Shown here: positions 12,437 through 63,246 of the stretch, in pieces
Numbering within the stretch: position 1 is the stretch's first letter
How the letters are laid out: the number at the start of each line of letters is the position of its first letter
Source of the DNA: Escherichia coli
Lineage (GTDB): Bacteria > Pseudomonadota > Gammaproteobacteria > Enterobacterales > Enterobacteriaceae
Assembly (NCBI RefSeq): GCF_003018255.1
Contig: NZ_CP027440.1
Reading direction: 5' to 3' (one strand)
Length of the DNA stretch: 64,000 bases
The notes under the pieces: generated by a model
What the model was told of the DNA's origin: nothing
The model's input: the letters and a program-made list of their open reading frames with translations, nothing else
Databases searched by the model: none
Translations under genes and position numbers: made by a program

Positions 12437-12513
12437 AACAAAAAACCCCGCCGGAGCGAGGTTTCGTCAGTCGCCTGCGGCTGGTAACCGCAAAGCACAC
12501 TGTATTATGTCAA
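12437..12513 (-). ncRNA. istR: IstR-1 antitoxin sRNA of the tisB/istR type I toxin-antitoxin locus (approximate ends)
   Basis: Minus strand reads GTTGACATAATACAGTGTGCTTTGCGGTTACCAGCCGCAGGCGACTGACGAAACCTCGCTCCGGCGGGGTTTTTTGTT, ending in an intrinsic terminator; a TATACT -10 lies just upstream. Confidence 0.6.
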
Positions 12514-12619
12514 CACTGAAAGTATACGTGTTCCGCGCAGAACGCGCAATTTCGGCACGAATTTTGACGTATTTAGTGCATAGTTGAGTATCGATCACAG
12601 TTTGCGTTTTGTCCAATAT

Positions 12620-32467: not shown

Positions 32468-32866
32468 TTAGCGGAAGAGTTTCCCTTTCAGCAGTTCCAT
32501 GCCTGCGGAAAGCAGATCGTTATTGGCTTGTGGTGACACTTCACCTTGCGGTGAGAGTGCATCAATAATCTTCGGCAATTGTTCTGCCAGTAAACTGGAA
32601 GCCGTACTGGTATCCACGCCCAGTTTTTGCCCGAGATCGGACACCGCATTTGTGCCGAGCGCCGATTCCAGTTGCTCGCCGCTAACCGATTGATTGCCCT
32701 GTTGATTACTCAGCCAGGTTGAGAGAATGGCCCCTAAGCCGCCACTTTGCAGTTTTTCCAGCAGCACCTGAATACCGCCCTGCTCCTCAACCCAGCTCAA
32801 AATGGCCTGATATTTCCCCGCATCGCCTTTCAGAAAGGCACCGACAACTTCATCAAAAAGCCCCAT
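32468..32866 (-). CDS. yidB: DUF937 protein YidB, 132 aa
   Basis: ORF 32468..32875; start at MGLFDEVVGAFLKG... Confidence 0.85.
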   Translation of the reverse strand: MGLFDEVVGAFLKGDAGKYQAILSWVEEQGGIQVLLEKLQSGGLGAILSTWLSNQQGNQSVSGEQLESALGTNAVSDLGQKLGVDTSTASSLLAEQLPKIIDALSPQGEVSPQANNDLLSAGMELLKGKLFR

Positions 32867-32948
32867 GATAATCACCTGTAAAGCGTTACGTGTTGACCCA
32901 AAAAGTATAGATCTGCGGGATGATAATTGCGGATTGCAGAAATAAAAA

Positions 32949-32976
32949 GGGCGAAGATGATCTCCGCCCTTTTCTT
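32949..32976. terminator. Bidirectional intrinsic terminator hairpin (GGGCGAAGAT/ATCTCCGCCC) with A/T runs on both sides
   Basis: Read directly from sequence downstream of gyrB. Confidence 0.6.
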
Positions 32977-32986
32977 ATAGCTTCTT

Positions 32987-33084
32987 GCCGGATGCGGCGT
33001 TAACGTCTGATCCGGCCTACAAAATCATGCAAATTCAATATATTGCAGGAGTCTCGTAGGCCTGATAAGCGTAGCGCATCAGGC
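32987..33084. repeat. Pair of REP (repetitive extragenic palindrome) elements in opposite orientation (BIME-like)
   Basis: GCCGGATGCGGCGTTAACGTCTGATCCGGCCTAC and the inverted copy GTAGGCCTGATAAGCGTAGCGCATCAGGC. Confidence 0.8.
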
Positions 33085-33105
33085 ACGCTCGCATTGTTAA
33101 CGCCA

Positions 33106-36621
<3,516 letters not shown>

Positions 36622-62382: not shown

Positions 62383-63195
<813 letters not shown>

Positions 63196-63246
63196 TCAGG
63201 CTTACCGTAGGCCGGATAAGGCGTTTACGCCGCATCCAGCAAAGTG

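Follow-up and report, generated by a model that had tools for sequence, protein, structure and literature searches.

A BIME-1 repeat next to a predicted intrinsic terminator in the gyrB-yidB spacer of Escherichia coli

Introduction

Descriptions of REPs, BIME-1 and its IHF site date from the 1980s and 1990s onward, and the consensus for IHF binding is WATCAANNNNTTR. BIME-1 are single units in which a y and a z1 REP are parted by a long, well-conserved linker, L (Ton-Hoang et al. 2012, PMC3333891); this linker frequently contains an IHF site (Nunvar et al. 2010, PMC2817692; PMC3333891), and IHF is the documented partner of the class (PMC2817692, PMC3333891). BIME-2 are composed of Y and Z2 REPs with short linkers in tandem, and it is for these tandem y and z2 units that strong gyrase binding and cleavage has been documented (PMC2817692, PMC3333891, PMC6379681). 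The association of gyrase that was documented by Espeli and Boccard and by Topo-Seq is with BIME-2 (PMC6379681); in the Topo-Seq data BIME-2 contain more gyrase cleavage sites than expected, and IHF sites slightly fewer (PMC6379681).

Several effects on gene expression have been attributed to these repeats. REP hairpins can protect 3′ ends from exonucleases, according to references given in PMC6061677, and attenuation associated with BIMEs has been published, according to references given in PMC3333891; for a REP to down-regulate translation, its distance from the stop codon may not exceed 15 nt (Liang 2015, as cited in PMC7967276). REP-derived RNAs are also represented in Rfam; naRNA4, for example, derives from the Y/Z2 array REP325, which is a BIME-2 array (PMC4550694).

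The REP locus between yidB and gyrB already served as an example in a 2021 paper (PMC7967276, Fig. 5B). A preliminary description of this locus, made from the sequence, had proposed a pair of inverted REPs and a bidirectional hairpin terminator downstream of gyrB, and had linked such pairs to mRNA stabilization and to targeting by gyrase and IHF. The analysis presented here finds that description right in outline and the repeat and terminator already known, with nothing new; the discovery value of the locus is small. The best explanation, held with high confidence, is that a dispensable copy of BIME-1 lies in the gyrB 3′ UTR, just before an older, conserved terminator.

Organization of the gyrB-yidB spacer

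The window is a stretch of 64,000 nt of E. coli DNA (NZ_CP027440.1); a 401-nt query taken around the site matched 5,425 of 5,426 complete E. coli genomes, with a top identity of 99.3%. As gyrB and yidB are both encoded on the minus strand, the spacer between them (32867-33105, 239 nt) is downstream of gyrB and upstream of yidB; the K-12 spacer between the same genes (3877466-3877704) is of equal length. Read in the gyrB sense, the spacer consists of the stop codon, a 21-nt flank, the Z1 REP, the L linker and the Y REP, followed by approximately 12 nt, a terminator hairpin with its U-tract, and a yidB leader of approximately 73 nt. The features are as follows.

33106-35523, minus strand: gyrB CDS (NCBIfam NF011501, 1384 bits, and TIGR01059; gyrB in the RefSeq annotation of matching genomes)
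33085-33105, minus strand: flank of 21 nt from the gyrB stop to the Z REP, a weak and degenerate match to the BIME-1 outer flank
33084-33055, minus strand: short Z-type REP (z1), GCCTGATGCGCTACGCTTATCAGGCCTACG, with 0/30 mismatches to the published sequence
33056-33066, minus strand: exact copy, within the Z REP tail, of the natural IS621 target ATCAGGCCTAC (target from PMC11208160)
33021-33054, strand not assigned: BIME-1 L linker, AAAATCATGCAAATTCAATATATTGCAGGAGTCT(C), about 35 nt, identified by a match to RF02751 and by the Y/short-Z layout of other copies
33033-33045, plus strand: IHF-like core ATTCAATATATTG, agreeing with WATCAANNNNTTR at 8/9 specified positions
32986-33020, plus strand: Y-type REP, TGCCGGATGCGGCGTTAACGTCTGATCCGGCCTAC, with 3/35 mismatches to the published TGCCGGATGCGGCGTAAACGCCTTATCCGGCCTAC
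32970-32978, plus strand: T-run TTTTCTTAT, which gives the hairpin a bidirectional look
32973-32945, minus strand: predicted gyrB intrinsic terminator with stem AAAAGGGCGGAGAU/AUCUUCGCCCUUUU and U-tract UUUUUAUUU at 32948-32940 (whole element 32940-32973)
32867-32939, minus strand: yidB leader and putative promoter region, with a -10-like TATACT at 32910-32905
32468-32866, minus strand: yidB, DUF937/YidB family, 132 aa (NCBIfam NF008509, 288 bits), the next gene after gyrB

The gyrB reading frame has 805 codons and ends with TAA at 33108-33106; its start in the list of open reading frames is a TTG at 35523, however the profile match runs only from residue 2 onward, and the true ATG is therefore probably at 35520. 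The NF008509 profile covers residues 4-135 of a longer GTG-initiated frame that ends at 32468; because the match begins at residue 4, the true start of yidB is placed at 32866, and the K-12 gene is 399 nt long. The yidB leader may act as the promoter region of yidB (32867-32939), as suggested by its -10-like hexamer; by eye, C(C/T)TATACTT was also seen in Pseudocitrobacter and Kluyvera, about as far from the ATG of yidB. A generic promoter scan found no match to the sigma-70 consensus in the spacer. A small-ORF reading was considered; mechanical ORFs in the spacer reach only 23-28 codons and overlap the repeats. The RefSeq feature table for K-12 contains only CDSs at the gyrB-yidB site, with no repeat feature.

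Classification of the repeat

The REPs were compared with the sequences published by Durrant et al. (2024, PMC11208160) and with those quoted in PMC7967276; the naming of the short Z REP as z1 is as quoted in Ton-Hoang 2012 (PMC3333891). The two inverted REPs that had been proposed at 32987-33084 are borne out by this comparison, as Y differs from the published sequence at three of 35 positions and Z at none of 30; dinucleotide-preserving shuffles of the whole window (100 for Y) gave no chance match at three or fewer mismatches for either REP. The comparison with the REP consensus thus returned a good match and not a poor one, while the sequence of the long Z (z2) fits the spacer poorly, with at least 17/37 mismatches. 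The Y REP is an imperfect palindrome of approximately 35 nt that ends in GGCCTAC (GTAG on the opposite strand), as is characteristic of the Y type; the Y and Z REPs are mutually inverted and their GTAG/CTAC tails point to the linker. As expected of REPs, the elements are extragenic, lying from the gyrB stop to the yidB start, and are present in many copies per genome; the 401-nt query, which includes the REP pair, finds a median of 16 matching places in an E. coli genome. Further REPs are located within the window at approximately 63207-63241 and approximately 1081.

Both REPs are predicted to fold as hairpins, the Z REP at -15.0 kcal/mol. The hairpin of the Y REP is kept in the window but weakened, at -13.1 vs -20.9 kcal/mol, by substitutions at three positions where it departs from K-12 and the consensus; the K-12 Y REP at the same site is itself identical to the consensus derived from 66 copies at other loci. 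A perfect 9-nt inverted repeat (32996-33004/33096-33104) was rejected as not meaningful, since it arises from a lineage-specific G-to-T change and is absent in K-12. The same G-to-T change creates the palindrome GTTAAC within the Y REP.

Copies of the linker were collected with the exact 20-nt word TGCAAATTCAATAWATTGCA, which was scanned in one genome per species across 100,044 species. The matches to this L core are found in Escherichia (E. coli, E. albertii, E. whittamii and other clades) and Pseudocitrobacter, with a few isolated elsewhere. Among the 86 copies from other loci or genomes with full flanks, 68 display the arrangement Y-L-short Z seen in the window; 10 have a Y REP with a different partner, and seven are unrelated matches by chance. 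When 66 independent copies are reduced to a consensus, a Y REP and a short Z REP appear on either side of the linker AAAATCATGCAAATTCAATATATTGCAG..., and the window copy agrees with nearly all of the well-conserved columns in these three parts. Typical copies also have outer flanks, roughly CAGATTGCTGACAAAGTGCGCTTTGTTCA beside the Y REP and ATTTTGCGTTTGTCATCAGTCTCA beside the Z REP, which are mutually inverted repeats; these flanks are present in most copies, with a conservation of approximately 60-90% per column in the consensus, and are not part of the definition of BIME-1 quoted in PMC3333891. The left flank of the gyrB copy bears no relation to CAGATTGCTGACAAAGTGCGCTTTGTTCA, and its right flank matches only weakly.

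Judged by its sequence, the gyrB-yidB repeat is a BIME-1 (RIP/RIB), with one y and one z1 REP inverted around L. It is a single unit at 32986-33084 with no tandem array, and sampled E. coli genomes that carry this long allele are uniform in the length of the 401-nt region. The repeat shares with described BIME-1 the REP types and their inverted orientation, the linker of approximately 35 nt with an IHF-like core, the single copy, and the position at the 3′ end of a transcription unit; it differs in lacking the usual outer flanks and in the three substitutions of its Y REP. With BIME-2 it has in common the Y REP and the principle of an inverted pair, however the z2 REP, the short S linker and tandem repetition are all absent from the gyrB-yidB copy.

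Allelic states and distribution

Variation between strains at this site was surveyed in the 5,426 complete E. coli genomes, which fall into three main classes: a long allele in 4,602 (85%), a short allele without BIME-1 in 699 (13%), and a long allele with IS621 in its Z REP in 90; about 35 genomes fall outside these classes. In the short allele a stretch of approximately 135 nt, comprising the plus-strand T-run, the BIME-1 and the gyrB-side flank, is replaced by the 39 nt GGACTGACGACTAAGTCATTTTATCAGCAACAAAAAGCC; the terminator stem and the sense U-tract are kept. The long allele is common to E. coli, E. albertii and strain E69. A BIME-1 is also present after gyrB in E. whittamii, where it has the canonical left outer flank and a different downstream neighbor.

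The gyrB-yidB spacers of Pseudocitrobacter, Kluyvera and Pluralibacter are 102-114 nt long and contain no BIME; each has its own GC hairpin and U-run 20-35 nt past the gyrB stop, in a place that corresponds to the E. coli terminator. As the BIME-1 is shared with relatives, absent in neighboring genera and polymorphic, it is considered to be old within Escherichia and to have been repeatedly lost or disrupted. BIME-1 is non-autonomous and would have colonized the site within the genus Escherichia, with the terminator being older. The distribution fits a dispensable passenger repeat better than a locus-specific regulator.

The linker, IHF and Rfam families

The preliminary description left the linker unnoticed as a conserved repeat motif. 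Within it, ATTCAATATATTG is the lone match in the spacer with at most one mismatch to the IHF consensus, and as DNA the linker is predicted to bind IHF and to be bent by it. Neither IHF peaks nor mapped gyrB 3′ ends specific to the locus turned up in the literature searched, and gyrB and yidB have no entry in the supplementary data of Adams 2021 or Kasho 2021. Of the two partners proposed for the REP pair, IHF agrees with what is documented for the BIME-1 linker; gyrase, however, is documented for BIME-2, and the z2 REP and tandem units of the strong gyrase sites are missing here. No gyrase data specific to gyrB-yidB were found in the literature searched. For annotation, the gyrase link therefore belongs to the other BIME class.

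The sole above-threshold Rfam match at the site is RF02751 (ES036/CssrF) at 33021-33063 on the plus strand, which scores 56.9 bits against a gathering score of 37.6 and covers the full model (1-43). ES036 is listed as an sRNA family, however it appears to model the BIME-1 linker and not a unique gene; since the 43-nt model coincides with the L linker and the REP tail, every BIME-1 copy should match it. We take the match to recognize the repeat and do not count it as support for an sRNA gene here. The opposite reading, in which the linker is an independent sRNA gene on the plus strand, would account for the strand and score of the Rfam match, and would agree with reports that approximately 80% of REP loci are transcribed (PMC4550694) and that the locus has a weak divergent TSS (PMC7967276). 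It is nevertheless extremely unlikely, given that any BIME-1 copy matches the model, that the plus-strand fold of the linker is no better than that of shuffled sequence (z = -0.5), that the promoter scan of the spacer gave no match, and that a hairpin with a T-run separates the linker from the yidB leader; a full-text literature search on ES036/CssrF returned only unrelated papers. An ES036 "sRNA" match at this position is thus best annotated as the linker of a repeat, with no distinct gene.

A second family, RF02564 (naRNA4, CssrE), gives a partial match to the Y REP and the terminator of 36.4 bits, below its gathering score of 59.5. The Rfam consensus of naRNA4 carries the long Z, consistent with the z1/z2 nomenclature.

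The predicted gyrB terminator

The hairpin that had been placed at 32949-32976, downstream of gyrB, stands up well to folding. A repeat finder reports arms at 32945-32958 and 32960-32973 that are 93% complementary; in the gyrB-sense RNA, 14 predicted pairs enclose a loop of 3 nt at -20.4 kcal/mol (z = -5.0), and none of 200 shuffled sequences was as stable. The GC-rich stem-loop is followed on the sense strand by the U-tract UUUUUAUUU and lies past the gyrB stop, as in an intrinsic terminator. In common with enterobacterial Rho-independent terminators, it has a GC-rich stem with a U-tract directly 3′ and comes after the final gene of the operon; it differs in the symmetric look produced by an upstream A-run and in having been missed by the generic terminator scan, which listed nothing at the hairpin site on either strand. 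With that scan empty, the call rests on folding and on comparison across genera. The Term-seq supplements searched for the 3′ end of gyrB contained no gyrB or yidB entry.

Both E. coli alleles have kept the stem, as have E. albertii and strain E69, and on this comparison the terminator stands out as the part of the spacer that is conserved and functional, at which transcription of gyrB would end in vivo; this is useful for annotation. Two independent transitions in the stem, one in the lineage of the window and one in E69, each give a G.U pair in the gyrB-sense RNA and an A.C mismatch in the antisense RNA, which is a small hint of possible selection on the sense transcript.

The terminator had also been called bidirectional, and for this the structural look holds, with an A-run on one side of the hairpin and a T-run on the other; the antisense stem is weaker, however, no convergent gene is present, and the T-run is absent from the short allele. 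A working bidirectional terminator would also halt antisense RNA begun on the plus strand in the yidB leader, before it reached the REPs and antisense gyrB. The K-12 stem is perfect both ways (-23.3 and -21.7 kcal/mol), and a weak divergent TSS has been reported between yidB and gyrB (PMC7967276, Fig. 5B), which would agree with some antisense role. In the window, on the other hand, the antisense fold has an A.C mismatch, reaches -14.8 kcal/mol and ends in a tail of only UUUUCUU; the transitions in the window lineage and in E69 spare the sense and not the antisense stem; the 699 genomes with the short allele have no plus-strand T-run at all; and the spacer gave no match to a sigma-70 promoter on the plus strand. 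As gyrB and yidB are co-directional, there is also no convergent gene that would need termination on the plus strand. Function in both directions is therefore considered unlikely, and the term bidirectional appears to describe only a structural resemblance; an antisense role draws no support from the comparison of alleles and relatives.

The repeat in the gyrB transcript

Because it precedes the gyrB terminator, the BIME-1 is placed inside the gyrB 3′ UTR and is expected to be co-transcribed; it would start 21 nt past the gyrB stop and end approximately 12 nt ahead of the intrinsic terminator. For the gyrB 3′ UTR as a whole the predicted fold has -72.5 kcal/mol (z = -5.9), and in it the tails of the two REPs pair with each other over the linker. 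As RNA, the REPs and the linker would form a long imperfect hairpin that could slow 3′ exonucleases and would add little beyond the terminator hairpin. The BIME-1 may have an effect on the expression of gyrB or yidB.

The stabilization of upstream mRNA that had been put forward for the REP pair is plausible in general; at this locus, however, the terminator 3′ of the REPs would itself protect the end, and 13% of E. coli genomes as well as three genera are REP-free. A stronger version holds that the pair is kept for a job specific to the locus, either stabilizing the 3′ end of gyrB mRNA or attenuating read-through into yidB. It would be in keeping with the transcription of the REPs upstream of the terminator, with the stability of the 3′ UTR fold, with the exonuclease protection and attenuation reported in the references of PMC6061677 and PMC3333891, and with the retention of the BIME-1 in E. 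albertii, strain E69 and 85% of E. coli genomes. Such a job has a low probability, as a strong terminator hairpin would already provide a protected end, the BIME-1 is missing from 699 E. coli genomes and from the three neighboring genera, IS621 disrupts it in 90 genomes, and the Y REP of the window has decayed from -20.9 to -13.1 kcal/mol. The REP (33084) is also 21 nt from the gyrB stop (33106), beyond the 15-nt range of the sole translational effect with experimental support, as cited in PMC7967276; the class of stop-codon REPs that stall ribosomes was ruled out on this distance. A dispensable repeat that was inserted ahead of an existing terminator remains the preferred account.

Possible turnover of the spacer and the IS621 target

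In the gyrB sense, the 39 nt specific to the short allele include TTGCTGATAAAATG-ACTTAGT, which is identical at 18 of 22 positions to the outer flank TTGCTGACAAAGTGCGCTTTGT; the likeness has a shuffle p of approximately 0.004 before correction for six comparisons. This stretch could be the remnant of another occupancy by BIME-1, or could be due to chance. Given at least three structural states within one species and a flank-like substitute, the spacer could record turnover of BIME-1, the short allele being what a BIME-1 of earlier date or opposite orientation left behind once its Y-L-Z core was excised. This reading is very unlikely; if true, REP/BIME excision, possibly by the REP-associated transposase, would here have left a natural trace of a rare kind.

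IS621 is a member of the IS110 family with a bridge-RNA recombinase, and the site holds an exact copy of its natural target; the window itself has no IS621 there. In the interrupted long alleles the junctions lie precisely at GTAG|GCC of the Z REP, and the tail of this REP would be a live target for the REP-specific IS621. The number of interrupted genomes (90) was obtained with a longer query anchored in unique sequence; a first junction query matched 1,254 and was not specific to the locus, because IS621 sits in many BIME-1 copies. The site offers a natural example of the target of a bridge-RNA recombinase in use, and the polymorphism in the presence of BIME-1 and of IS621 could be a small lineage marker.

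Divergence and alleles of the gyrB-yidB BIME-1

The 291-nt alignment of the window with K-12 contains 16 differences, and 12 of them are located within the BIME-1 or the flank on its gyrB side (window 32986-33105; 1585-1705 in the K-12 sequence, L001). Divergence is roughly 10% in this segment versus 1-2% in the surrounding sequence; the repeat thus either evolves much faster than the sequence around it or undergoes gene conversion. In 699 E. coli genomes the BIME-1 is replaced by a 39-nt substitute (671-709 of the short-allele sequence L002, in place of window ~32970-33104). On the gyrB-sense strand this substitute matches the canonical outer flank motif, the conserved sequence beside the REPs in most full-length BIME-1 copies, at 18 of 22 positions, with a shuffle p of about 0.004, uncorrected.

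The Z REP of this BIME-1 is also a target of IS621, a member of the IS110 family of bridge-RNA recombinase elements. In NZ_CP027577.1 the element (L094, 3760-5037) splits the REP precisely at GTAG|GCC, corresponding to window 33059/33060, with AG at either junction. When 5,426 complete E. coli genomes were searched with a query anchored in unique sequence, 90 had the identical insertion, and many of these are STEC-like strains.

Tandem units and stray contigs

Escherichia sp. MOD1-EC7003 (L072, 388-982) carries at least five tandem Y-L-Z units with a 115-nt period and one 230-nt gap, and L-containing units therefore form arrays in some Escherichia lineages; the tandem arrangement is seen in two further sequences as well, L071 and L066. 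These arrays run against the quoted single-copy rule for BIME-1, and are probably 'atypical BIMEs'. Complete E. coli-type Y-L-Z BIME-1 units also turn up in unrelated assemblies, each time on a very short contig:

L073, Methylobacterium frigidaeris, 261-nt contig
L074, Alkalicoccobacillus porphyridii, 720 nt, coverage about 1
L044, Collinsella MAG, very short contig

These three are most likely E. coli contamination. The same origin is only suspected for the match to the L core (the exact 20-nt linker word) in Desulfosporosinus sp. OT (L015), which lies so near the end of a 262-nt contig that its flanks are unreadable.

Neighbouring genes

In E. whittamii the gyrB BIME-1 adjoins no yidB; its neighbour is a convergent hydrophobic ORF of 35 codons, which is followed by its own hairpin and could be a small membrane peptide or toxin-like gene:

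L060 5184-5291, convergent, downstream of gyrB, 35-codon ORF, MKKFIDILILIIFIVAVILGIGYAILLHSLPAMRY

The yidB leader of the window contains a -10-like TATACT (32905-32910, minus strand) with no acceptable -35 element; the motif recurs, as C(C/T)TATACTT, in Pseudocitrobacter and Kluyvera at a similar distance to the yidB ATG.

Other REP and Rfam matches in the window

A second REP cluster lies at 63177-63241, where a Y REP adjoins a degenerate Z-like palindrome, and further Rfam matches above the gathering score are istR, ROSE_2 and AsdA:

63207-63241, minus strand, Y REP, 1/35 mismatches
63177-63205, degenerate Z-like palindrome beside this Y REP
about 1081-1115, weak Y-like match, 5/35 mismatches
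12440-12569, minus strand, istR, 150 bits
22819-22891, minus strand, ROSE_2 thermoregulator, 96.6 bits
38540-38620, plus strand, AsdA, antisense RNA of dnaA mRNA, 101.9 bits
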